A DNA stretch of 64,000 bases, taken from contig JAXGPF010000004.1 in the NCBI GenBank assembly GCA_040767085.1, positions 313,918 to 377,917 on the forward strand. The letters are read 5' to 3'. The notes under the pieces are model-generated. The model was not told the DNA's origin. It worked only from the letters and a program-made list of their open reading frames with translations, and searched no databases. Source of the DNA: Kiritimatiellia bacterium (lineage in GTDB: Bacteria; Verrucomicrobiota; Kiritimatiellia; JAAZAB01). Shown in pieces: positions 2,057 to 13,164 of this stretch (position 1 is its first letter; every line of letters begins with the position of its first letter). Both the position numbers and the translations under genes were made by a program.

Positions 2057-2752
2057 ATGAGCTTGAATATTGTGCAACAAATTGATGACCGTGTCGCCGT
2101 GCGCAACGTGCTGATCAGCGCCTGGGACAAGACCGGGCTCGAAGACCTGGCGCGGAACCTGGCGGAGATCAATCCCGGCCTGAAAATTTATTCCACCGGC
2201 GGCACCTTTAAAGCCCTGCAGACGGCCCTGGGCCCGGATCGCGCCGCGCGCAACCTGGCCCAGGTATCCGCTTACACCGGCCAGCCGGAAATGCAGGGCG
2301 GTTTGGTGAAAACCCTGGATTTCAAAATTTACCTCGGGCTGCTGAGCGAAACCTACAATCCGGACCATGCCCGCGACTTGCAGCGCCTCCAGGCCCTGGC
2401 GATTGACATGGTGGTGGTGAACCTCTACCCGTTCGCCCGCGTGGTCGCCGAGCCCGGCGCCACGCCGGAACAGGCGCGCACGCATATCGATATCGGCGGC
2501 CCTTGCATGATCCGCGCCGCCGCCAAGAATTTCCTGCGGGTGGCCGCCGTCACGCAACCCGGCGACTATGGGCCCATCATCCAGGAATTGCGGGAGAATC
2601 GCGGCGCCATCGGATTACAAACGCGCTTTGAACTGGCGCGCAAGGCCTTTGCGCACACGGCGGAATACGACCGCCACATCGCCGGGTACCTCCAGCAATG
2701 CGCATTCGAGCAGGTCAAGGCGGGGTACCGATGCGGCAATGGCGGCAACTAA
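2057..2752 (+). CDS. purH: PurH N-terminal half (MGS-like IMP cyclohydrolase domain)
   Basis: Motifs LISAWDKTGL, YSTGGT, YTGQPEMQGGLVKTL, VVVNLYPF, IDIGGPCMIRAAAKN, AFAHTAEYD. AAGGA RBS before ATG 2057. Confidence 0.9.
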   Translation: MSLNIVQQIDDRVAVRNVLISAWDKTGLEDLARNLAEINPGLKIYSTGGTFKALQTALGPDRAARNLAQVSAYTGQPEMQGGLVKTLDFKIYLGLLSETYNPDHARDLQRLQALAIDMVVVNLYPFARVVAEPGATPEQARTHIDIGGPCMIRAAAKNFLRVAAVTQPGDYGPIIQELRENRGAIGLQTRFELARKAFAHTAEYDRHIAGYLQQCAFEQVKAGYRCGNGGN

Positions 2753-2867
2753 AAGACCTGCATCACGGATTCAGGGGAAAATGCCGTCAGCAAATCGCGC
2801 CGCGTTCGCGGCGCAACGGATTTAAACAGCCGGCCCTTGCCGGCATGAACATATAAGGAAATAAACC

Positions 2868-4121
2868 ATGAGCGCTCCGGATTACAAAAAAGCCTACAAA
2901 ACCATCATGGACGACCATTTCACGCCGCAACTGGAAATCAGTTTCATCCAGGACGGCCAGCGCCAGACGCTTTATTACGAGAAAGCCGTCTGGCGGATTG
3001 ACGGCGTGGAAAAAGGACTGCGCTACGGCGAGAACCCCGGCCAGGAAGCCGCGCTCTACCGCCTGGTCAACGGCAACCTCGCCCTGGGCACAGTCCAGTC
3101 CATCCAGCCCGGTCGTTACCTGGCGTCTGACGCCGAACTGCTGCAATCGGGCAAACATCCCGGCAAGACCAATCTGACCGACGTGGACAGCGCCTTGAAT
3201 ATTCTGCGTTACCTGATGGACGCGCCCTGCGTGGCAATCGTCAAGCACAACAATCCCTGCGGCGTGGCGCGCGCCGGCACCCTGGCGGAAGCCTATCAGC
3301 GCGCCAATGCCGCCGACATGGTAGCCGCCTTCGGGGGCGCGATTGTGGCCAACCGCCCCATGGACCGCGACACGGCCGAGCTGATCGCCCAGCAATACGC
3401 CGAGGTGGTCGCGGCCCCGGAATTCGGACCGGGCGTCCTGGAAATCTTCGCGCGGAAGAAAAACCTGCGGGTCATGCGCGTAGCCAACATCGGCCGGCTG
3501 GCGGAATATGTTGGCGCGCGCGTGGTGGATTTCCGGGCGTTGATGGACGGCGGCCTCGTGGCGCAATGGTCATTCCAGCCCGTCACCCGCGCGCCGGCCC
3601 AGTTCCTGCCTGCAACGGCCACATATAAGGGCAAGGAATATAAAATCAACCGGCAACCCACGGAGCAGGAAGCCGCCGACCTGGTATTCGGCTGGCTGAT
3701 CGAATGCGGCGTCACCAGCAACTCGGTGATCTATGTCAAAAACGGGGTGACCGTCGGCATCGGCACCGGCGAGCAGGACCGCGTGGGCGTGGCTGAAATT
3801 GCCCGGGACAAAGCCTACCGCAAGCTGGCCGACCGGCTGTGCCGCGAAAAATCCGGCATGCCGTACAATAACCTGCAGGATGCCGGGCAGCGCCGGGAGA
3901 TTGACGCCGAAACCGCGCGGCAGCGCGGAGGGCTGCCGGGCGCCTGCATGGTGTCAGACGCCTTTTTCCCGTTCCGCGACGGCGTGGATGTGGGCTTACG
4001 CGAAGGCATCACCGCCGTCATCCAGCCCGGCGGCTCGGAGCGTGATTTCGAATCCATCGAGGCCTGCAACGAAGCCAACGCCGCCATGGTCTTCACCGGT
4101 CAGCGTTGTTTCCGACATTAA
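2868..4121 (+). CDS. purH: PurH C-terminal half (AICAR transformylase)
   Basis: Motifs LRYGENPGQ, KHNNPCG, AFGG, EVVAAP, SNS, GIGTGEQDRV, SDAFFPFRDG, IQPGGS, MVFTGQRCFRH. Confidence 0.93.
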   Translation: MSAPDYKKAYKTIMDDHFTPQLEISFIQDGQRQTLYYEKAVWRIDGVEKGLRYGENPGQEAALYRLVNGNLALGTVQSIQPGRYLASDAELLQSGKHPGKTNLTDVDSALNILRYLMDAPCVAIVKHNNPCGVARAGTLAEAYQRANAADMVAAFGGAIVANRPMDRDTAELIAQQYAEVVAAPEFGPGVLEIFARKKNLRVMRVANIGRLAEYVGARVVDFRALMDGGLVAQWSFQPVTRAPAQFLPATATYKGKEYKINRQPTEQEAADLVFGWLIECGVTSNSVIYVKNGVTVGIGTGEQDRVGVAEIARDKAYRKLADRLCREKSGMPYNNLQDAGQRREIDAETARQRGGLPGACMVSDAFFPFRDGVDVGLREGITAVIQPGGSERDFESIEACNEANAAMVFTGQRCFRH

Positions 4122-4171
4122 TTATTGCTTGTCCCGCCCTGGAATTTCTATATTATTTTGATGCCAGCAAT

Positions 4172-4786
4172 ATGAGCATACACCAGAAAATCCGGACCGC
4201 GCTTTGCGTTTTGATCCCGGGCAGCTTGATCATGCTGCAGGGTTGCTGCTGCTTCGGCGGGCGCAAGTCCGCCGAAACCGTCAAGTATGAGGCCCACCCC
4301 CGGATTTCGCTGACACCGGAATGCCGGCAAATCAAGAAAGTGAGCGTCATGCCCTTCCGCGCCGCTACGGCAATTGCCGGCGAATCCGTCGCCGACATGT
4401 TCGTCACGGAAATCATCAAGGAACAGATTTACGAAGTGGTTGAGCGCAGTCAGATTGACAAGGTGCTCAGCGAAAGCGAGGTGGCGCTGGCGGGCCTCAC
4501 CAGTTCCAAGGCCGCGGAAATGGGCTCGATGCTGGGCGCGGACGCCGTGATCATCGGCACGGTGGATGAATACAGCATGATGCCGTCCAAGGACATGCAT
4601 TTCGCCGTCGTCGGGATCAATGCCCGGATGATTGACTGTAAATCCGGCAAGATTTTATGGAGCATTGACCTGGCCCAGCGCGCGGGCTCCACGTCCGTCA
4701 CCGTGCCGGAGCATGCCCGCGCGGTCGTGCGGGCCATGATCGAGGCGCTCCGCGCGGAATTGGCCAAAACCATGGGCGCATATTGA
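4172..4786 (+). CDS. CsgG/HfaB-like lipoprotein
   Basis: Lipobox-like LQGC and CsgG-type core YEVVERSQIDKVLSE...MGSMLGADAVIIGTV...ARMIDCKSGKILW. Confidence 0.75.
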   Translation: MSIHQKIRTALCVLIPGSLIMLQGCCCFGGRKSAETVKYEAHPRISLTPECRQIKKVSVMPFRAATAIAGESVADMFVTEIIKEQIYEVVERSQIDKVLSESEVALAGLTSSKAAEMGSMLGADAVIIGTVDEYSMMPSKDMHFAVVGINARMIDCKSGKILWSIDLAQRAGSTSVTVPEHARAVVRAMIEALRAELAKTMGAY

Positions 4787-5937
4787 AAAACCGGCTCGCC
4801 AGCACGACATGGTCTGCTGTCCGCCTGACGCTATGGCCGCTGGTCCCGCTGCTGGCGGTAATGGCCGCCGGCTGCGCCACCGCGCCGCCGCTGCCCGCCG
4901 CCAAGCCCGCCGCGGAACCGCTCCGCACTACGCCGCCGCCCCGGGTCATCGTCCTGCTGAATGAAAAGGACGCCGGCGGCGCGGCCGCCGCGGAAGCGGA
5001 GTCGGCCGCCGTCAATTACCTGGTCGCCCATAACATCCCCGTGGTGGACCGGGCGGTCGTGCAGTCCAACCAGGAGAAAATCCAGGCGCTGCTGGCGCTG
5101 GCGGGCGACGACCAGGGCGCCGCCGCCATCGGCATGCAGTTCGGCGCCGATGTCATTCTCCGCGGCGAGGCGGAAGCCCGGCAGACCGCGGCCGGCATCC
5201 GCGGGAGCAAGTTGAACAGTTACCAGGGCAAGCTGGATCTCCGGGCGATTGACGCGGATGACGGGCAGATTCTTGCCGCCGCCGCCGCCGCCGTGCCGGC
5301 AATCGCCATGGACGCGGTCAATGGCTCCGCCCAGGCCTTGCAGTCCGCCGCCGCGCGCGCCCTGCCCGAGTTGCTGCCGAAACTGCTCGCGGCCTGGGAC
5401 ACCAAGGCTGAAAACAAGGTCCGGCATCCGGGCCGGACCGGCATGTCGCTCTCCGCGGCATTGCGCCCGGCCGATGCCGATTCCGCCGCGGTGGAACTGC
5501 CCAAGCCGCCCCGCGGGCGCAAAACGCCGGTGGCAGCCATCTGGCGGCTGACCGCCCAGACGGGCGCGCAGCCGGAATGGATGGAGCCGCTGACGGAAAC
5601 GCTGTACGCGGTGCTGTCGCAAAGCGGCTGGTTCCGCCTGGTCACCCGGGAGGACATGGAAAAAATCATGGCCGAGCATAACATCCAGCTCAGCGACATC
5701 TGCGACACCACCGAACGGGCGATCGAATTAGGCAAAATCCTGAGCGCGCAGAAAATGCTGATCGGGACCGTCAGCAAACTGGGCGGCACCTACCAGGCGG
5801 TGGTCAAACTGGTGGACGTCGAAACCGGCGAAATTGAAAGCGTCGGCCAGGCGGATGCCAAGGGCACGATGGATGTCCTCTTTCAACTGGTGCGCCAGGC
5901 CAGCGCCGATCTTCTGGAACACGCGGGGCAGCGGTAA
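4783..5937 (+). CDS. Lipoprotein with two CsgG/TolB-N-like domains
   Basis: Lipobox MAAGC. First domain GMQFGADVILRG...LRAIDADDGQIL; second domain FRLVTREDMEKIMAE...ELGKILSAQKMLIGTVSKLG..KLVDVETGEI. Confidence 0.72.
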   Translation: MKNRLASTTWSAVRLTLWPLVPLLAVMAAGCATAPPLPAAKPAAEPLRTTPPPRVIVLLNEKDAGGAAAAEAESAAVNYLVAHNIPVVDRAVVQSNQEKIQALLALAGDDQGAAAIGMQFGADVILRGEAEARQTAAGIRGSKLNSYQGKLDLRAIDADDGQILAAAAAAVPAIAMDAVNGSAQALQSAAARALPELLPKLLAAWDTKAENKVRHPGRTGMSLSAALRPADADSAAVELPKPPRGRKTPVAAIWRLTAQTGAQPEWMEPLTETLYAVLSQSGWFRLVTREDMEKIMAEHNIQLSDICDTTERAIELGKILSAQKMLIGTVSKLGGTYQAVVKLVDVETGEIESVGQADAKGTMDVLFQLVRQASADLLEHAGQR

Positions 5938-6054
5938 GAATTTTGCTTGCGTTGGCGGCCGGCGGCGTTAAACTGTAAACATCTTAAGGATGCCCATTTG
6001 CCAGCACAACGGTTTGGACGATCGCAATTCAACCCCGAGGACAGGAGAACGGTC

Positions 6055-7146
6055 ATGCAAAAGTCAGCGCGGGCGGTGTTGTGGGCGGCGGTATTGGCGG
6101 CCGCGGGCGCCTGGGCCCAGGACAAGGAGCAGGTAACGGTCATCCGGCAGGGCGCCGGCGGCGAAGTGCAGATCATTTCCAAGGAACAAACTGCGCCGGC
6201 GGAAACGGCCCCCACGGACGCCGCGCGCGAAGCGGCGCGGGCCGTGGCCGCCGACGACACGCCGCGCAAGGCGCGCGTGATGGTGATCCCGGCGATTTTC
6301 GCCCAGGAGCAACGCCGGCGTGTGGACCGCGAGTTTTTCGAGCGGTTCAACATCACCGATCCGGGTGTAATTGAAAACCCGGGGTACACCAGTTACCTGA
6401 TTGACGCGCTGGTGAATGTCCGCAAATTCGACATGCTGGAGCGCGAGGAACTGCGGCAGGTGGTCAAGGAACTGGATTTCGGGGAAAGCGACTACGTGGA
6501 TGTGGAAAAAGTCGTTAAAATCGGCAACATGGTCGGCGCGGACTACATGATCATCCCCACCATCCGCTACCTGGAAGTTGACCGCGAAACCAAAAACGTG
6601 CCGTATGTCGGCGGCCAGCAAATCGCCATCCGCTGCAAATTCGCCACCAACGTGCGCACGGTGGACGTGGCCTCCGGCAAGATCATCGCCTCCGGCGTGC
6701 GCGAAGTGGAAAAGAAGAAACGCCAGCGGGCCCAGGACTCCCAGCGCATCCTCGTCATGGACACCGTGAGCGAGTGCTACAAGGAATCCGCCATGCTGGA
6801 TGCCGCCAAGATCGTGGATGTGGCCTACCCCATCCGCATCATGAGCATTGACGGCAAGACGGTCATGCTCAACCGGGGCCAGGGCGCGATCCTGCCGGGC
6901 GAAGTCCTGAAAGTTTATGCCGCCGGCGAAGTCATGATCGACCCTGACACCAAGGACAACCTGGGCTACCATGAAACTTACCTGGGCTCGGTCAAGGTCA
7001 CCGAAGTTGACTTGAAAACCAGCAAGGGCACAATTATTGACCAGCCCGGAACAATCGAGCGGTTGGCTATTTGCCGGCGCACCGAACAGCCTACACTGGC
7101 TGACCCGCGCCTGCAGCCGCCGACGGCGGCGCCCAAAATCGACTGA
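6055..7146 (+). CDS. Secreted CsgG-like protein with FlgT C-terminal-like domain
   Basis: Signal peptide ending AWA-QD; FDMLEREEL...IGNMVGADY; C-terminal VMLNRGQG...IDPDTKDNLG...GSVKVTEV. AGGAG RBS. Confidence 0.72.
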   Translation: MQKSARAVLWAAVLAAAGAWAQDKEQVTVIRQGAGGEVQIISKEQTAPAETAPTDAAREAARAVAADDTPRKARVMVIPAIFAQEQRRRVDREFFERFNITDPGVIENPGYTSYLIDALVNVRKFDMLEREELRQVVKELDFGESDYVDVEKVVKIGNMVGADYMIIPTIRYLEVDRETKNVPYVGGQQIAIRCKFATNVRTVDVASGKIIASGVREVEKKKRQRAQDSQRILVMDTVSECYKESAMLDAAKIVDVAYPIRIMSIDGKTVMLNRGQGAILPGEVLKVYAAGEVMIDPDTKDNLGYHETYLGSVKVTEVDLKTSKGTIIDQPGTIERLAICRRTEQPTLADPRLQPPTAAPKID

Positions 7147-7282: not shown

Positions 7283-7714
7283 ATGACGGCAAAATTATTG
7301 GGCATGATGGCGCTGGCATTCGCGCTGGCCGGGCTGGCCGGCGGCTGCCGCAACCCGGTGACCTCCGCCGGCGCCACGATGGAGAGCTACGCCGGCAACC
7401 AGGTCAAGGTCAACTCGCGGGTTTTCGGCAAGCATTTCCGCGTGGCCAACGTGGCGACAGCCAGGGGCCAGAACCAGTTGCTGAAGACCACCGTCACGCT
7501 GGAAAACCTCCAGCAATTTTCCATGGCTTTCGAATACCGGTTCCGCTGGGTGGACGCCGAAGGCATTGAAATCGCCACCGGCACAACGCTTTGGATTTCC
7601 AAGATCGCCGCGGCGCGCGAAATGGTGCTGATGACCGCCATCGCGCCCACGAAACTGGCGGAGGATTTTATTCTGGACGCCCGTTTTGTTTATCCCAGCA
7701 CGCGCTGGAAATGA
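7283..7714 (+). CDS. YcfL/DUF1425-like lipoprotein
   Basis: Lipobox LAGGC; FEYRFRWVDAEG and AIAPT motifs; lies directly upstream of an LpoB-like gene, as ycfL does. Confidence 0.75.
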   Translation: MTAKLLGMMALAFALAGLAGGCRNPVTSAGATMESYAGNQVKVNSRVFGKHFRVANVATARGQNQLLKTTVTLENLQQFSMAFEYRFRWVDAEGIEIATGTTLWISKIAAAREMVLMTAIAPTKLAEDFILDARFVYPSTRWK

Positions 7715-7760
7715 TACGGTCGCCGAGTATACGGCATTCAAGCGACAAGGAGCAATCAGC

Positions 7761-8393
7761 ATGCGGAAATCTATGTATTGGACGCGGGCGGCGGGCGGCC
7801 TGGCCGCGCTGGCGCTGTTAGCCGGCTGCCGGTCGGTGGACATACCCCGGACCGGTTACGTCTCGCCCGAGGAAGAAGGCGTCATGACCATCGCCCTGGA
7901 TGACCACGATTACGACCTGGCCGCCGAAGGCATCGCCCGCGAGATGTTCATGCGCGGACTGCCGAAAGATTATGTCGTCGTCCTGGGCCCGGTGGATACC
8001 CGCGAATGCCCCTATGACGTGCGGGTGATCCAACTGCAGAAATCGCTGCAAGTGATTTTTAACCGCGAAGGGACGTTAAAATTCCTGACAGCGGCGGACG
8101 CCATGGCCGGCGGCACGGCGGTGGATGAAATCTACAAGATCATTCAATACAACTGGCTGAACAGCAACCCCATGGACCTGGAGGATTTGCAAACCTTCGG
8201 TCAACTGGCCCGCATCAACGGTATTCTGTTCGGGCGCGTCTCATCCCTGGAACGCAACCTGCCGGGGGGCGGCCGAGAAATCAGCTACCGCTTTGTCTGG
8301 GAACTCACCAATACCAAAACCGGCGTGCTGGACATCTCCCATGAACAGCGCATCCGCAAAAACATATCACGGGACATGCTGCTGAGGCAATGA
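7761..8393 (+). CDS. LpoB-like lipoprotein (penicillin-binding protein activator family)
   Basis: Lipobox LLAGC; LDDHDYDLAAE; LFGRVSS...YRFVWELTNTKTG...EQRIRK C-terminus. AAGGAG RBS. Confidence 0.7.
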   Translation: MRKSMYWTRAAGGLAALALLAGCRSVDIPRTGYVSPEEEGVMTIALDDHDYDLAAEGIAREMFMRGLPKDYVVVLGPVDTRECPYDVRVIQLQKSLQVIFNREGTLKFLTAADAMAGGTAVDEIYKIIQYNWLNSNPMDLEDLQTFGQLARINGILFGRVSSLERNLPGGGREISYRFVWELTNTKTGVLDISHEQRIRKNISRDMLLRQ

Positions 8394-8810
8394 TGCTTAA
8401 ACGGTTTTTATTTTCCGCGGCTTTGTCGCTCGGCGCGGCGCTGGCCGGACTCACCGGCTGCCGCTCGCATTCCGGACCGCCGCCCGCCCCGCCGCCGGCC
8501 TGGACGCTTTCCCCTAAACCGGCTGACAGCGTTTACTGCTATTTTGTCGGGACTTCGACCGGCCAGTCCGCGCCCGCCGCGGCGCGCGAGGCCGCTTACC
8601 AGGACGCCTTGCGCCAGATATCCCGGCACATCGTCAGCGAGGCCGGCCTGGGTCTGGCCGCCTTGCCGCCGGGCGGCATCCTCCTGCCGCTGGAGGGAGC
8701 GGAGATCATGCCGGGCTGCTTCTATCAAAGGCGCTTACCGGGGGTATGTGCAGGTGAGTTTCCCGATCGCCGGGAAGCGCAAAGTTATCGAACGGCTGCG
8801 CCAGCCGTAA
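8390..8810 (+). pseudogene. LPP20-like lipoprotein with an apparent frameshift near 8725
   Basis: Lipobox LTGC; PPAW...YFVG...AREAAYQDAL. Similarity to the paralog at 11914 continues in another frame (GAYRGYVQVSFP..., stop 8810). Confidence 0.6.
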
Positions 8811-8820
8811 GGGGGTCAAA

Positions 8821-9399
8821 ATGAAATCGGCAGCGAAATGGCTGGTGGTACTGGGTCTGGGCATGGCTTGCCTTGCGGCGGGGGCGGCCGAGTTAGGCCG
8901 GTCGCAGCCGGTAGCCGTGGTCAATGACCGGCCCGGCGGCAGCGGCAAAGCGGCCGGGCTGCAACTGGCGCTTTTCGCGCCGATCCAGGTGTTCCCGGAA
9001 AACTACAACATTTACGGGCTGCGCCTCAACCTGATTTACGGGATTAACCAGGACCTGCGCGGCCTGGACTTGGGTATGTTCAATGTCGGGCGTGGTTTGA
9101 TGGAAGGGCTGCAGGTCGGATTAGCCAATCGGACGGCGGAATTGTCCGGGATGCAGCTTGGCCTGCTGAACTTCACCGGCGCCTCCGAGGGCGGATTTCA
9201 ACTGGGACTGATGAATTACGCGCATGAATTCGCCGGACTGCAGTTGGGACCGATCAATTTCGCCAAGGACGTCAATGGCGCACAAATCGGCGTCATCAAC
9301 ATCTGCGAAACCACCGCCGGCGCCCAGATTGGCCTGATCAATATCATTTCCCAAAGCGATTGGCTGGTCTTCTGTCCGCTCGTTAACGCGCAATTCTGA
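8821..9399 (+). CDS. Secreted GLQxG-repeat protein (LA_2272-like beta-solenoid)
   Basis: Signal peptide; repeated GLQVG/GMQLG/GFQLG/GAQIG-xxN units; YGLRLNLIYG; ends PLVNAQF. Confidence 0.75.
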   Translation: MKSAAKWLVVLGLGMACLAAGAAELGRSQPVAVVNDRPGGSGKAAGLQLALFAPIQVFPENYNIYGLRLNLIYGINQDLRGLDLGMFNVGRGLMEGLQVGLANRTAELSGMQLGLLNFTGASEGGFQLGLMNYAHEFAGLQLGPINFAKDVNGAQIGVINICETTAGAQIGLINIISQSDWLVFCPLVNAQF

Positions 9400-11324
9400 T
9401 GAAGACTTCCCTGCCATGCCGGTTTCTGCTCTGCGCCCTGGCGCTGGCGGCGCACAACGGCCGCGCGCTGACGCCGGATGAGGCGGGCGTGCCGAAGCGG
9501 CTCCAGCCGACCATCATGGGCACGGTGGACCTCAACGAGGGCGGCACCAGGACCCTCAGCATGTCGCGATATGCCTCCACCTGGCTGGAGTCCAACGAAA
9601 AAGTCAGCGGGACGCTTATCCGTTCCGAAAGGGCCAACTGGAATGTCTTCGGGCCGGGATCCACCGTAAACCCCGGTGAAGATACGGTTACCATTAAAGC
9701 CACCAGAGCCGGCCAGGGCTATATCCAGGGGTATCGTTATCTTTATTATATGGATAACGGCGTGGAGCGGAGAAACATCCTCATCCAGATCTGGCTGCTG
9801 AAGGTGCATCCCCTGACCGATGGATCTTCCAACAATGCTCCGACCGGCTCGCCCGGCGGGGCATGGCCGACTGAGAAGCCGGACATCCCCCGGGCCGTCA
9901 TCAAGGGGCGGGCGGTGATGCGTGGAACGGACACCGGTGTGCCTGGCGCATATATTGAACTGATCGGCGCCAGAACCGGCACGTTGCGCACCAACTGGGA
10001 AACTGGCGCCGACGGCGGATTTAACATTAAGGCGGACAACATGCTGTCCGCGGACCGGTACGAAATTTTTATCCGCAAAGGCTCCGCCAATGCCGCCCGG
10101 GAAGATGCCGTGATGGAGGATTTATGGCCGATCCGCAGGTATTACGTGACCGTGACCCGCGACAACTGCCTGAATCTTAACCTGGGCCGGATCGAAATGG
10201 CGTCCGTCGAGGATTTATGGGGCGCGGACCGGACGGCCGGCGCCGATGCCGCCCGCCCGGAACTTGACATTACCCCCAAGGCCGGACCCGGCGCCGGCGG
10301 CGGCCAGACGACTCCATCCGGGCAGATACCCGGCGGCGGCCAAACGCCCGGATCGGCAACAGCCCCGGGCGCCGGCGGCGGTCAAGCGCCGGGAACCGGC
10401 CCAACCCCGGGCGGCGGCGGGCAACCTCCGGCGCCGCCTCAAACACCGGATGCGCCGGATGCCCCCGGCACACCCCAGCCGCTGGACGATAGTGTGCCGG
10501 TTTTAATCGCCCCCGGCGCGATCGGCGCGGCAGCGGCTGCCCAATCCCTGCAAATTGTATATAAAGGCTATGTTGAAGTAGATTTCAACCTTAAGGCCAC
10601 CATGACCTTAAAACTTGCCGGATCGGCCGTGACCGGCGAGTTATACGCGCCGCCGGTGTCCCAGCCCAATGTGCGGCTGCCGGGCGCGCGTATGCTGCTG
10701 GACGGCACGCTGGCAGGCGGCTGGGAGGATGGCGGCAGGATTACCGGGAGTTGCACCGGCCATATCCTGTGGCCGGACGGCAAGCAGGAAGAGCGCGCGG
10801 GCCAGTTTCAAATCGCAAAGGCCGGCGCGGAAATTCACTTCCGCAGCACGAAGTTTTATTATAACCACTACATTTTCGGCGCATTGGGTATAAAATACGC
10901 CGGCGGCAATGCCGTAACCAACGCTGCCGGCACAAGCCTTAATTCCGTCTTGATCCTGATTGATGCTTCCGGCAGCATGCAGGGCGAAAAAATCAACCGG
11001 GCCAAGTCCACGGCCTGCCGGCGCATTGCCGAACTGGGGCCGGAGACCGAGTTAGCCGTGATCGCTTTCAGCGGCAATTCCCTGAAATTCCAGTTTGCGC
11101 CCATGGATGACGATGGGCGCGCGCGCGCCCAGGAAGCCGTCAATGGCGTCAGCGCCGGCGGCGGTACGCCCCTGGCCGCCGCTATCCGCAGCGCCGGCAG
11201 TTATATACGCGGCAACGCCCGGTCGAAAAACAAGACTTTGATCATTCTATCGGACGGCGAAGAAAGCGAAGGCGGCAACCCGCCGGAGGAAATCCGCAAG
11301 CTGAACGATGTGACGGTAAATTAA
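9399..11324 (+). CDS. Secreted multidomain protein with Pro/Gly linker and C-terminally truncated VWA domain
   Basis: Signal peptide; carboxypeptidase-regulatory-like segment (IKGRAV...VPGAYIEL...ETGADGGF); MIDAS residues DASGSM, GGTPL, IILSDG; ends abruptly at NDVTVN. Confidence 0.8.
   Translation: MKTSLPCRFLLCALALAAHNGRALTPDEAGVPKRLQPTIMGTVDLNEGGTRTLSMSRYASTWLESNEKVSGTLIRSERANWNVFGPGSTVNPGEDTVTIKATRAGQGYIQGYRYLYYMDNGVERRNILIQIWLLKVHPLTDGSSNNAPTGSPGGAWPTEKPDIPRAVIKGRAVMRGTDTGVPGAYIELIGARTGTLRTNWETGADGGFNIKADNMLSADRYEIFIRKGSANAAREDAVMEDLWPIRRYYVTVTRDNCLNLNLGRIEMASVEDLWGADRTAGADAARPELDITPKAGPGAGGGQTTPSGQIPGGGQTPGSATAPGAGGGQAPGTGPTPGGGGQPPAPPQTPDAPDAPGTPQPLDDSVPVLIAPGAIGAAAAAQSLQIVYKGYVEVDFNLKATMTLKLAGSAVTGELYAPPVSQPNVRLPGARMLLDGTLAGGWEDGGRITGSCTGHILWPDGKQEERAGQFQIAKAGAEIHFRSTKFYYNHYIFGALGIKYAGGNAVTNAAGTSLNSVLILIDASGSMQGEKINRAKSTACRRIAELGPETELAVIAFSGNSLKFQFAPMDDDGRARAQEAVNGVSAGGGTPLAAAIRSAGSYIRGNARSKNKTLIILSDGEESEGGNPPEEIRKLNDVTVN
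10280..10480 (+). repeat. Degenerate intragenic repeats encoding a (P)GGGQ(T/A)P low-complexity linker
   Basis: About four ggcggcggNca(a/g) units; protein GAGGGQTTP / PGGGQTP / GAGGGQAP / PGGGGQPP. Confidence 0.65.
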
Positions 11325-11329
11325 CCGTT

Positions 11330-11908
11330 ATGAAAATTTTACGTCCCATGATGATGTGCGCAGCGGCGGCGCTGGTTTGCGCGCAGGCCGGCGCGCAGGA
11401 TGCCGCACCCGGACCGGCGAGCCGGGATTTAATCAACATTGTCGCCGTCGGCTATGACATTGAAAACAATCCCAAGGCCCAGCAAATGCTCCAGGATATG
11501 GCGCAGGCCGCCCGCGATGCCGGCGCCGGCGGCACCGTGATCATGGCCGGGCAGGACGAGGCACAACTGGACCAGGCCATGCAAAAGGCCATGACCATCG
11601 CCACCCAGCCGCCGGCGCCGGCATACCGGCTGGAACTCAAGACCGCTTCCGCCGCGCCGGGGGCCAGGATCGTGGTGGTGCATTCCGATTTCCCGGCAAC
11701 GAACCGCGAGGCCTGGATTGCCTTTTATGAAAAGGCCGGCGACCGCGACCAGGACTATCTGTCTTATACCTTTCTGGCCAACCTGAACGATCGGACATAC
11801 GATGTCACGGCCCCTGACAAGCCCGGCGCCGAGTATCATTTCCGCCTTTTTTTAACCAAGGAATACGATTGCGCCGCCCGCAGTGAACCAGTCCATATCG
11901 CCGAATAA
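11330..11908 (+). CDS. Secreted protein: C-terminal VWA segment plus Ig/SKICH-like domain
   Basis: Own signal peptide (AQAGA-QD), then INIVAVGYDI...AQQMLQDMAQA...GGTVIMAGQDEAQLDQAM, then an Ig-like domain (AWIAFY...APDKPGAEYHFRLF). Confidence 0.7.
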   Translation: MKILRPMMMCAAAALVCAQAGAQDAAPGPASRDLINIVAVGYDIENNPKAQQMLQDMAQAARDAGAGGTVIMAGQDEAQLDQAMQKAMTIATQPPAPAYRLELKTASAAPGARIVVVHSDFPATNREAWIAFYEKAGDRDQDYLSYTFLANLNDRTYDVTAPDKPGAEYHFRLFLTKEYDCAARSEPVHIAE

Positions 11909-11913
11909 TCTGC

Positions 11914-13164
11914 ATGAAGTTTTTCCGCCTGTTTTTGATGAGCCTTGCACTGCTGGCGGGTTGGCCGGCAGTTCCAGTTGGCGCCGCGCCGGATTACCGT
12001 CCGCTCTGGATCGAGCAGCCTAAAAGCGACGACAGCATTTACCTTTACCGCGTCGGCACCGCCGCCGCCGGATCGGAAACCGCGGCGCGCCAGGCCGCCC
12101 TGGTCCAAGCCGGCGAAATCATCCTGGATGAAATCCTCGCGCAAAGCGGCGTGCCGGAAACAGAGCGCGTTGAATTGCGCGGCGCTCTGGCGTTGCGGGA
12201 TTTGACGCCGGTTCCCGACGCCGTGCATTATGCCCCTGAAAACGGCGGCACCCGGTGCTGGCTGCAGGTCAGTCTGCCGTTGCAGGAGCGCGCCCGCCTG
12301 CGGCAGGACATCGCGGCCGCCATGGAGCGCCGCCGCTTGCAGGAGGAATTCGACGCCCGCATCAACGGGCAATGGCAGGAGGGCCGGGCCGCCAGCCTGC
12401 GGGGCGAATACACCCAGGCCCTGGCGCTCTTGCGGGAGGCCGAAACCAACTTTGCCGCGGTCCATCGCCCGGCATTTGCGATGGAGGAACTGCGCCTGCT
12501 GCTGGGCGATGTGCAGCGGGAACTAGGCCGGCCCCTGGACGCGCGCGGTTACTACGAAACCGTGGCCGGACTGGCAACCGCTGAAACCTGGCAGGCGCAG
12601 GCGGCGGCGCGCCTGGCGGCGCTGCCCGATCCGCCGCGCCTATGGCCGGCGCTGACCCGTTGGCAGGACCGCGCCGCGGCGCAAGTCTGCGTATTGCAGC
12701 CGGCCGGCGATCCGGCGGCATGGTTTGGCGAACTTGCCGCGGTGCTGCACCGCGATTTTCAAGCCTGCCGGCGGGATTTGTGCGACCTGGCCCAGTGGCC
12801 GCCGGAATCCGCCGCGCAGCTTTTCATAACGCGCCAGACGGCAGCCCTGGCCGGCGCCGCCCGCGCCGCATCGGCTGGAATGGTGCTGGTGATCTACGCC
12901 CGGGGGGATGCCACCGGTGGCGGGACGCCGCCGGAAACGGGCGGACTGCGCTTCCCCGCGCCGGATATGACCGTCCAATTCATGGTGTTGGACGCCATCG
13001 CCAATCGCATCGTATATGCCGGCGAATTCCGGGAAATGCGCGGCCGGCGCGGCAACGCGCGGCTGGCCGAACGGATTGCGTCAATCCTGATCAACAATTA
13101 CCTGGCGCCCAAATGTCCGGCGCTGGCGCCCGGGCCAGGCGGCGCGGCGGCCGGCCCCGGATAA
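11914..13164 (+). CDS. Secreted protein with LPP20-like N-domain and TPR-like helices
   Basis: Signal peptide; PLWIEQP...YLYRVG...ARQAAL; TPR-like GEYTQALALL...LLGDVQRELGRPLDARGYY. Confidence 0.6.
   Translation: MKFFRLFLMSLALLAGWPAVPVGAAPDYRPLWIEQPKSDDSIYLYRVGTAAAGSETAARQAALVQAGEIILDEILAQSGVPETERVELRGALALRDLTPVPDAVHYAPENGGTRCWLQVSLPLQERARLRQDIAAAMERRRLQEEFDARINGQWQEGRAASLRGEYTQALALLREAETNFAAVHRPAFAMEELRLLLGDVQRELGRPLDARGYYETVAGLATAETWQAQAAARLAALPDPPRLWPALTRWQDRAAAQVCVLQPAGDPAAWFGELAAVLHRDFQACRRDLCDLAQWPPESAAQLFITRQTAALAGAARAASAGMVLVIYARGDATGGGTPPETGGLRFPAPDMTVQFMVLDAIANRIVYAGEFREMRGRRGNARLAERIASILINNYLAPKCPALAPGPGGAAAGPG

Follow-up and report, generated by a model that had tools for sequence, protein, structure and literature searches.

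A VWA domain apparently split between two adjacent genes for separately exported proteins in a Kiritimatiellia bacterium

The window, the whole 64,000-nt stretch of Kiritimatiellia bacterium contig JAXGPF010000004.1 that was analysed, carries two adjacent genes on the plus strand, as do all the features described below. Gene 1 (9399..11324) encodes a protein of 641 aa and gene 2 (11330..11908) a protein of 192 aa. The junction (11322..11329) consists of the gene 1 stop codon TAA (11322-11324) and the 5-nt spacer CCGTT, after which the ATG of gene 2 starts at 11330 in a different frame. This arrangement had been pointed out in an earlier sequence-only reading and was verified by reading the letters directly. 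Upstream of the pair, genes for a CsgG/LpoB-like protein (5947-7146), a DUF1425 protein (7283-7714), an LpoB-like protein (7686-8393), a small lipoprotein-like ORF (8390-8824) and an LA_2272-repeat/VC2662-family protein (8821-9399) lie on the strand of gene 1 with overlapping or nearly abutting ends. The same upstream set, from the CsgG/LpoB-like to the LA_2272-repeat gene, flanks the pair in the relative G416. The product of the downstream gene (11914..13164), which is 416 aa long, has a signal peptide and gave no family match; this gene also follows gene 2 in Kiritimatiellia relatives. The only families identified by Pfam and NCBIfam in the eight neighbouring genes were CsgG/LpoB-like, DUF1425 and LA_2272-repeat, and no usher, periplasmic chaperone or pilin family was detected among them.

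According to the AF2 model and Pfam, the product of gene 1 consists of a predicted signal peptide, within which helix 6-16 was modelled, two beta-sandwiches (residues 39-137 and 165-291), a disordered Gly/Pro-rich linker (293-382; pLDDT about 22 over residues 300-380), a beta-barrel-like domain (383-500) and the N-terminal two-thirds of a VWA domain (residues 512-641; 10932..11321). In the VWA part, strands 515-522, 550-557, 561-568 and 611-617 and helices 530-544, 571-582, 592-606 and 628-633 follow each other in the order betaA-alpha1-betaB-betaC-alpha2-alpha3-betaD-alpha4. The chain, which ends in ...EEIRKLNDVTVN, stops in the alpha4-betaE loop, and the six-stranded VWA fold is thus incomplete, with strands A-D and helices 1-4 only. 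Residues 517-639 were matched to positions 2-131 of the 174 positions of PF00092 with 42.4 bits (cut-off 23.8), and PF13519 was covered over positions 1-107 of 107 with 49.4 bits (cut-off 27), both above the gathering threshold. Solved VWA domains were aligned by VIA-align with Z of 15.3-12 over 121-131 residues, and only along their first 135-140 residues or so. Modelled alone, the truncated VWA reached an AF2 pLDDT of about 72-90. The MIDAS residues D522, S524 and S526 of the DASGS motif (residues 522-526; 10962..10976), T590 of GGTP (11166..11168) and D619 of SDG (11253..11255) are all located in gene 1, to which the sequence-only reading had assigned the whole MIDAS, and are invariant across 13 aligned relatives.

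The product of gene 2 comprises a signal-peptide-like N-terminus, a proposed VWA-completing module and a SKICH-like beta-sandwich. Residues 1-22 (11330..11395), MKILRPMMMCAAAALVCAQAGA followed by QD, by eye carry positive charge at the N-terminus, then a hydrophobic run, and end in an A-x-A site with the proposed cleavage between AGA and Q, and AF2 placed a helix at 8-21 with low pLDDT. This n/h/c pattern is that of a putative signal peptide, as had been proposed for gene 2. With a crude Kyte-Doolittle test, 28 of 33 gene-2 homologs showed a hydrophobic run ahead of the module, in a region of unconserved sequence. Of the five homologs that failed, two are fragments, one was missed by the regex and one has a gene call with a truncated start; the fifth, P0039, lacks a run of this kind. 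The mature protein had been said to begin with INIVAVGYDI; that segment is present, but a 12-residue linker (QDAAPGPASRDL) precedes it. The N-module of 60 residues (residues about 33-95; 11426..11614) was modelled as beta-alpha-beta-alpha with strands 36-42 and 67-73 and helices 48-63 and 77-92, and the mean pLDDT of 10-residue blocks was 88-97 over residues 41-90. Its secondary-structure content and order in the AF2 model are those of the part missing from the gene 1 VWA, and according to the model and the hhalign comparisons it is proposed to represent betaE-alpha5-betaF-alpha6. The Ig-like domain expected behind the module was recovered as an AF2 beta-sandwich (residues 101-190; 11630..11899) of SKICH/Ig-like type, for which the best Foldseek matches were SKICH domains (E 2.9e-6). 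No FHA domain occurs in gene 2 of the window, and Pfam gave no VWA match in gene 2 at E <= 0.1 but only a weak match to DUF1152.

The relationship of the module to the C-terminal part of VWA domains was studied by profile comparison with hhalign. With a pooled profile of 44 intact VWA sequences, gene 1 was aligned to columns 2-124 and the module to columns 122-178 (P 0.0014-0.0019), and none of 100 column shuffles reached the real score in either of two runs. The Bacillus-type ETCGGDP subgroup turned out to be the closest intact subgroup: gene 1 was placed on columns 6-151 and the module on columns 146-196 (P 7.5e-5), and the real score was not reached by any of 40 shuffles. With the other four of the five subgroup profiles, the module gave no significant match (P 0.11-0.28), and two of these four put it at other columns. 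When the module profile was compared with PDB sequences, nothing significant and no VWA was obtained, the best match being a CHAP domain with E 0.079; residues 23-100 of gene 2 gave no usable match in the ESM Atlas. The suggestion that the N-region of gene 2 aligns to the C-terminal VWA strands was therefore upheld by the pooled and the Bacillus-type profiles and was not borne out by the four other subgroups, Pfam or the PDB profile search.

At all 11 loci with upstream DNA (the window, L012, L013, L014, L015, L017, L071, L072, L095, L097 and L098; L096 lacks upstream DNA), the module gene comes immediately after one that ends in or contains a truncated VWA. Many of these loci are closely related, and together they represent about six independent architecture combinations. 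The split pair covers at least three phyla and five gene-1 architectures. In seven truncated-VWA proteins with these five architectures, the PF00092 match ends at profile position 124-132 of 174; in the control, the intact VWA of the same Acidobacteria locus, it extends to position 170. The break is located in the alpha4-betaE loop, the two genes are conserved together, and the module was found only at the start of small proteins, most of which have a signal-peptide-like N-terminus. Its position was determined with a HMMER scan of 1.84 billion representative proteins with the module profile, which resulted in 25 matches at E <= 0.001. In 22 of them, the protein is 139-279 aa long and carries the module at about residues 1-120, and the other three were long proteins matched in 4-13 short stretches, P0052 and P0053 being repeat proteins. 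Among the 1.84 billion representatives, HMMER never placed the module behind a VWA in one chain. A protein search for longer proteins homologous to gene 2 gave no match, which is weak evidence. Related genomes thus share the split, for which the sequence-only reading had suggested looking, and the searches turned up no homolog with the two parts fused and intact.

The module is sparsely distributed, being detected in 4 of 401 sampled genomes of the window's phylum and in 1 of 301 sampled genomes of the phylum of the Acidobacteria locus, the single genome being that of the locus itself. For P0040, a 'DFWD-type' homolog together with P0044, P0046 and P0048, no genomic locus was found. In a tree built from the VWA N-parts of 13 split and 45 intact forms, which has long branches and intact rows picked by pattern search, the split forms occupied one side of a branch with a support of 27; the tree is compatible with a single origin of the split forms. 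Full-text searches, judged on titles and the beginnings of abstracts, yielded no paper on a VWA divided between two genes.

The partner proteins differ in their tails, which consist either of a SKICH-like beta-sandwich or of a TM helix with an FHA domain. In P0032, P0037 and P0039 the order is module, poly-Gly, TM and FHA, and the FHA domains scored 58.6-72.3 bits on PF00498 (cut-off 20.7). These TM-FHA variants adjoin a Ser/Thr kinase. Together with the upstream truncated VWA, a TM-FHA partner would recreate an arrangement with the VWA outside and the FHA inside. A fused VWA-FHA protein ('Rosetta-stone') was sought through long P0037 matches in Anaerolineales loci; these matches appear to be FHA proteins without a VWA, judged from 7 of 22 loci, of which two gave full ORFs and the others were read in the wrong frame.

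Taken together, genes 1 and 2 probably encode one VWA fold that is completed in trans after export and serves as a coupler. In this mechanism, gene 1 would supply betaA to alpha4 with the complete MIDAS, and gene 2 would supply betaE-alpha5-betaF-alpha6. Both chains would be exported unfolded via Sec and their signal peptides cleaved, whereafter betaE of gene 2 could dock on the exposed betaD edge of gene 1, and the two helices of the module would pack on either face, completing the six-stranded sheet. Once complete, the domain would serve as a non-covalent link between the beta-rich domains of gene 1 and the tail of the partner, which is the SKICH-like beta-sandwich here and the membrane helix with a presumably cytoplasmic FHA domain in other lineages. 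The 5-nt gene spacing is consistent with coupled, roughly equimolar synthesis. The putative complex could be located at the surface or equally in the periplasm.

The main competing explanation is that the two proteins are linked but fold separately. Gene 1 would then contain a stable four-stranded 'mini-VWA', possibly self-completed by its conserved tail, and the module, as a small alpha/beta domain without relation to the VWA, would bind gene 1 elsewhere or share a common ligand with it. In favour of this, AF2 folds each part confidently alone and neither model calls for a partner, the module is recognised as a VWA neither by Pfam nor by the PDB profile search, four of the five subgroup comparisons were not significant, and N636, D637 and V640 of the gene 1 tail, which are conserved in the alignment of relatives, might have a role of their own. 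However, the VWA is the sole element common to the five gene-1 architectures and is broken at a matching profile position in all of them, and the secondary structure of the module corresponds exactly to the missing content. Moreover, both the pooled and the closest subgroup profiles place the module on exactly abutting columns with a score that no shuffle matched, and an isolated beta-alpha-beta-alpha unit whose first strand (INIVAVGY) is entirely hydrophobic appears unlikely as a stand-alone fold. Separate folding is considered rather unlikely.

Two further explanations concern the junction itself. By recoding, either a programmed -1 frameshift or stop read-through, a single chain could be produced in which the 'signal peptide' is an internal insertion. 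Just 5 nt separate the genes, and the gene-2 frame extends 73 codons ahead of its ATG to give an open frame of 265 aa, both of which would suit this mechanism; long open alternative frames are, however, common in this GC-rich DNA according to the ORF list. Against recoding, the gene-1 stops of relatives are TGA or TAA, the spacers vary from 5 to 9 nt, the relative frames differ, and the two ORFs overlap in G416. Furthermore, gene 1 of L017 runs 365 residues past the VWA break into other domains, in L015 a GGAGG Shine-Dalgarno sequence lies 5 nt ahead of the module-gene ATG, and no slippery heptamer was seen in the sequence ahead of the gene 1 stop. Recoding is thus very improbable. A sequencing frameshift, misassembly or recent pseudogene could be suspected from the frame break near the gene 1 end in L097, a metagenome contig, and from the only two fused relatives. 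These two are, however, deletion variants without most of the VWA and not intact ancestors. The junction is crossed without differences by contigs of runs X3 (10800-11579) and X7 (11130-11410) from two other studies, in line with the earlier view that the split is no simple sequencing frameshift, and the chain ends at the corresponding place in 11 of the 12 close gene-1 relatives, which reach down to 45% identity. Run X20, possibly RNA, contributed only pieces of 18 nt. The pair is also present in a complete 8.16-Mb chromosome from another phylum. An artefact or decay is hence hardly credible as the cause of the split.

If the completion in trans holds true, the gene-2 module constitutes an unannotated domain family for which Pfam has no model, and 'incomplete' VWA genes that pipelines could misread as truncated would be accounted for. 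The pair would also offer a testable model of post-export co-folding and, as a naturally divided domain, a means to couple proteins in the periplasm or at the cell surface, and the TM-FHA partners would connect an outside VWA site to inside phospho-signalling. The split VWA has apparently been kept in at least three phyla while both partners exchanged other domains.

In integrin I domains, the final VWA helix moves on ligand binding at the metal site. Since the final VWA helix would here belong to the second chain, a relay of ligand binding to the partner is possible, and it may be speculated that binding at the MIDAS is passed to the partner chain. A more far-reaching and doubtful proposal is that the split VWA is an obligate two-chain, Sec-compatible and exchangeable 'snap fastener' with a relay of ligand or metal binding from the MIDAS to the partner, which would be transmembrane in the TM-FHA variants. 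Any secreted chain ending in the first two-thirds could then be joined with any partner starting with the last third. Such a device would amount to a novel, two-component-like way of sensing at the surface, and could be used directly as an orthogonal split tag to couple extracytoplasmic proteins.

In comparison with single-chain VWA and integrin I-type domains (PF00092, PF13519), the split pair has the same DxSxS...T...D site and an equal order of strands and helices. The sequence of the break region is also similar, SDGEE.. GGxP being followed by V/I-x-V/I-G-F/Y-D-V/I. Among single-chain VWAs, the Bacillus-type 'ETCGGDP' proteins (loci L021-L035) come closest in sequence, and 4fx5, 6pyo and 6to1 (Mfa5 tip pilin) in structure, with Z up to about 15 in VIA-align. 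In contrast to the canonical VWA, the last beta-alpha-beta-alpha of the split pair is placed on a second polypeptide with its own predicted export signal.

Few natural domains are known to be divided between two chains that are exported separately, and the known cases, the donor strands of pili, involve one Ig-like strand. In donor-strand complementation of chaperone-usher and type V pili, one beta-strand completes the Ig-like fold of another exported protein, and the resulting joints, which are formed with the aid of a chaperone or protease in a polymerising series, are very stable and non-covalent. The proposed split VWA resembles these pili in that an exported protein with an incomplete fold would obtain the missing part from a second exported chain. 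Unlike in the chaperone-usher systems, no chaperone or usher family is found among the neighbours of the split pair. The contributed segment would also differ, since the second chain would supply a third of a Rossmann-like domain, comprising two strands and two helices, apparently in a 1:1 ratio.

Gene 1 (9399-11324, forward strand) encodes 641 residues ending in ...SDGEESEGGNPPEEIRKLNDVTVN, and gene 2 (11330-11908, forward strand) encodes 192 residues. The TAA of gene 1 at 11322-11324 was followed by the five-base spacer CCGTT and by the ATG of gene 2 at 11330, in another frame. Pfam matched residues 517-639 of gene 1 to positions 2-131 of 174 of the VWA profile PF00092, and its C-terminus also to the full VWA_2 profile (positions 1-107 of 107). 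The metal-site residues D522, S524, S526, T590 and D619 were all located in gene 1 and were invariant among 13 relatives. By Pfam score and metal site gene 1 is a VWA family member; the fold is not complete in this one chain. Gene 2 had no Pfam match at E <= 0.1 except a weak one to DUF1152. The sequence-only reading of a VWA domain split over two ORFs was correct, with one amendment: a 12-residue linker stands before INIVAVGYDI in the mature gene-2 chain.

Against a simple sequencing frameshift, already doubted in that reading, independent contigs crossed the junction unchanged and relatives keep the split. The Logan contigs of two sequencing runs, X3 (10800-11579) and X7 (11130-11410), from two studies separate from the possible source samples, had no differing letter, indel or joint. 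The search of a 5.8-billion-protein collection resulted in 12 close gene-1 relatives (45-100% identity), 11 of which had the same end point, ...LND-x-T/S-V-x-W; the remaining one, P0011, is a deletion form. The same split, sought in related genomes, recurred in three further species of the genus (L012-L014), in L015, a complete 8.16-Mb chromosome labelled Desulfatiglandales, and in additional loci. At L015 the operon of the window is absent and gene 2 has a GGAGG of its own five bases before the ATG. Recoding, which would join both genes into one chain, is argued against by the variation of the stop codon (TAA, TGA), the spacer and the relative frame between relatives. The split VWA feature is real and conserved.

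Two in-frame fused relatives were detected, both deletion variants. The 670-residue protein of genome G016 (L005:1492-3504, reverse strand; the same gene as L016:1885-3939) was the same as the split-form protein P0007 as far as ...ELAVIAFS and continued with the gene-2 sequence DIEASPEAQKML..., so that the segment from betaC to the beginning of betaE is missing, together with the stop, spacer and signal peptide. P0011 (621 residues) passed from just ahead of betaA straight into gene-2 ...GDQSQLDRAM. In both, the N-terminal domains of gene 1 are covalently linked to the gene-2 beta-sandwich; the fusions are either real strain variants or chimeras. In the metagenome contig gene L097:333-2353, a frame change was located about 25 codons ahead of the usual gene-1 end, the ending ...GEETGGGDPPAEVRRLNDLTVDW being legible in another frame and the downstream gene 2 intact. 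This copy is either decaying or affected by a sequencing error.

The AF2 model of gene 1 (13 sequences) contained E515-522, H530-544, E550-557, E561-568, H571-582, H592-606, E611-617 and H628-633, corresponding to strands A-D and helices 1-4. VIA-align superimposed residues ~510-641 on solved VWA domains with Z of 15.3-11.8 over 121-131 residues, and the targets were always covered only in their first ~135-140 residues. In the gene-2 model (27 sequences), a helix at 8-21 with low pLDDT was followed by E36-42, H48-63, E67-73 and H77-92 (pLDDT 88-97 as 10-residue block means over residues 41-90) and then by a beta-sandwich. The predicted N-terminal unit of gene 2 (residues ~33-95, hereafter the module) is exactly one beta-alpha-beta-alpha, as the VWA fold requires past helix 4.

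For the profile comparisons, 49 intact VWA domains were cut out from loci L018-L066, five of which were left out for stops or short ends. In hhalign against the resulting 44-sequence profile, gene 1 covered columns 2-124 (probability 99.9) while the module fell on 122/123-175/178 (P 0.0019 and 0.0014), and no column shuffle reached the real score (0 of 100 in each of two runs). Each of five subgroups of this set was then used separately. On the Bacillus-type 'ETCGGDP' profile, gene 1 occupied columns 6-151 and the module 146-196 (P 7.5e-5, probability 62%, 0 of 40 shuffles), VNIIGFDV standing under INIVAVGYDI. The other four subgroups gave P of 0.11-0.28, with the module placed elsewhere in two of them. 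No VWA was among the matches of a profile search against PDB sequences, Pfam detected nothing VWA-like in gene 2, and no usable match came from the ESM Atlas. The anticipated homology of the module to the VWA C-terminal part thus has the support of two profile comparisons, one good and one moderate, and of structural bookkeeping, but not of curated models. The Bacillus alignment located the break in the alpha4-betaE loop. Of gene 2, only the linker, which is not conserved, overlaps the conserved gene-1 tail (N636, D637, V640).

Five architectures of gene-1-type proteins were found: the window type (605-643 residues); P0013 (482 residues, other N-terminus); the G416 protein at L071 (370 residues), its pair inverted within the same CsgG-like/DUF1425/LpoB-like/LA_2272 gene set; that of L072, an Acidobacteria MAG (594 residues); and L017, with the VWA in the first half and then 365 residues of CarboxypepD_reg-like and other domains. 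The Pfam match ended at PF00092 position 124-132 of 174 in window gene 1 and likewise in each of the seven further proteins tested, and an intact VWA gene adjoining the L072 pair was matched over 2-170 as a control. The chain of P0014 (744 residues) stops shortly past the SDG-equivalent motif. Right before the VWA of gene 1, an all-beta unit (residues 383-500, window 10545-10898) best matched the Thermus outer-membrane beta-barrel protein 3dzm (Z 11.8, 114 residues); P0014 apparently has four like units ('...G.W.G...' repeats) ahead of its truncated VWA. Residues 293-382 (window 10275-10544) make up a stretch of 90 rich in Gly, Pro, Thr and Ala, AGPGAGGGQTTPSGQIPGGGQTPGS..., with predicted disorder (pLDDT about 22) and with a length and sequence that vary among relatives.

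The module gene was located directly 3' of a truncated-VWA gene in all 11 loci with upstream DNA, many of them closely related, so that about six independent combinations are represented, not eleven; an additional locus, L096, starts within gene 2 and is outside this count. The part following the module was a SKICH-like beta-sandwich in the window type (Foldseek E 2.9e-6), a short low-complexity tail in L015 and L095, and poly-Gly, a membrane helix and an FHA domain (PF00498, 58.6-72.3 bits) in P0032, P0037 and P0039. A crude hydropathy test detected a hydrophobic run ahead of the module in 28 of 33 homologs, with unconserved sequence; the misses were two fragments, one motif miss, one truncated-start gene call and P0039. 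The pair is the conserved unit while everything else varies. The L072 pair has a signalling-type neighbourhood (L072:1-7000): a TM-FHA protein (111-1061), the intact VWA protein (1063-2205), with membrane helices at its C-terminus, then the pair itself as truncated-VWA gene (2207-3991) and module-TM-FHA gene (4001-4789), and, downstream, a Ser/Thr-kinase-like protein of 669 residues judged from sequence (4850-6859), the C-terminus of which by eye resembles a formylglycine-generating-enzyme/sulfatase-modifying domain.

A HMMER scan of 1.84 billion representative proteins with the module profile A2 (7 sequences, 73 residues) resulted in 25 matches at E <= 0.001 and no single-chain relative of the module. 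Proteins of 139-279 residues with the module at about residues 1-120 accounted for 22; the three long ones (4799, 553 and 839 residues) were matched through 4-13 short stretches, and the two of these that were read, P0052 and P0053, are repeat proteins. The distribution is rare and patchy: 4 of 401 sampled genomes in the window's phylum had the module, and 1 of 301 in that of L072. The L015 pair (OY759599, 7166641-7174452), with 48% identity to the window's gene 1, has only unrelated genes around it. The CsgG-like operon is absent there, and gene 2 has no beta-sandwich. This suggests that the pair moves horizontally across phyla as a two-gene cassette.

Each gene has a putative export-type N-terminal signal, and their structural contents complement each other. 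The position of the break does not vary, and the two genes always adjoin, while the rest of their domains are all exchanged. A trans-completed VWA domain is the most likely reading. Both chains would cross the inner membrane unfolded, the first strand of the module would pair with the free betaD edge to complete the sheet, and one MIDAS-bearing VWA domain would tie the two proteins together. The window neighbours all have signal-peptide or lipoprotein-like N-termini and belong to envelope families (CsgG/LpoB-like, DUF1425, LA_2272 repeats/VC2662), which points to the cell envelope, either surface or periplasm, as the site of action. The ORFs 8390-8824 and 11914-13164, without a Pfam or NCBIfam match, share a similar ~45-residue stretch after a lipoprotein-like signal (W..xPK..DS.Y.Y.VGT..G.S...AR..A...A...I..EI) and may be paralogous envelope lipoproteins bracketing the pair. 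By analogy with the allostery of integrin I-domains, it can be speculated that the last helix, carried on chain 2, transmits the metal-site state.

The full-text literature search found no description of a VWA domain split over two genes, although papers beyond those searched, or supplements, could hold one. The pair would work like the donor-strand complementation of pili, in which one strand is donated. It does not belong to that system, because no usher or chaperone is present among the eight neighbouring genes scanned, the fold is another one, and the donated part would be two strands and two helices instead of a single strand.
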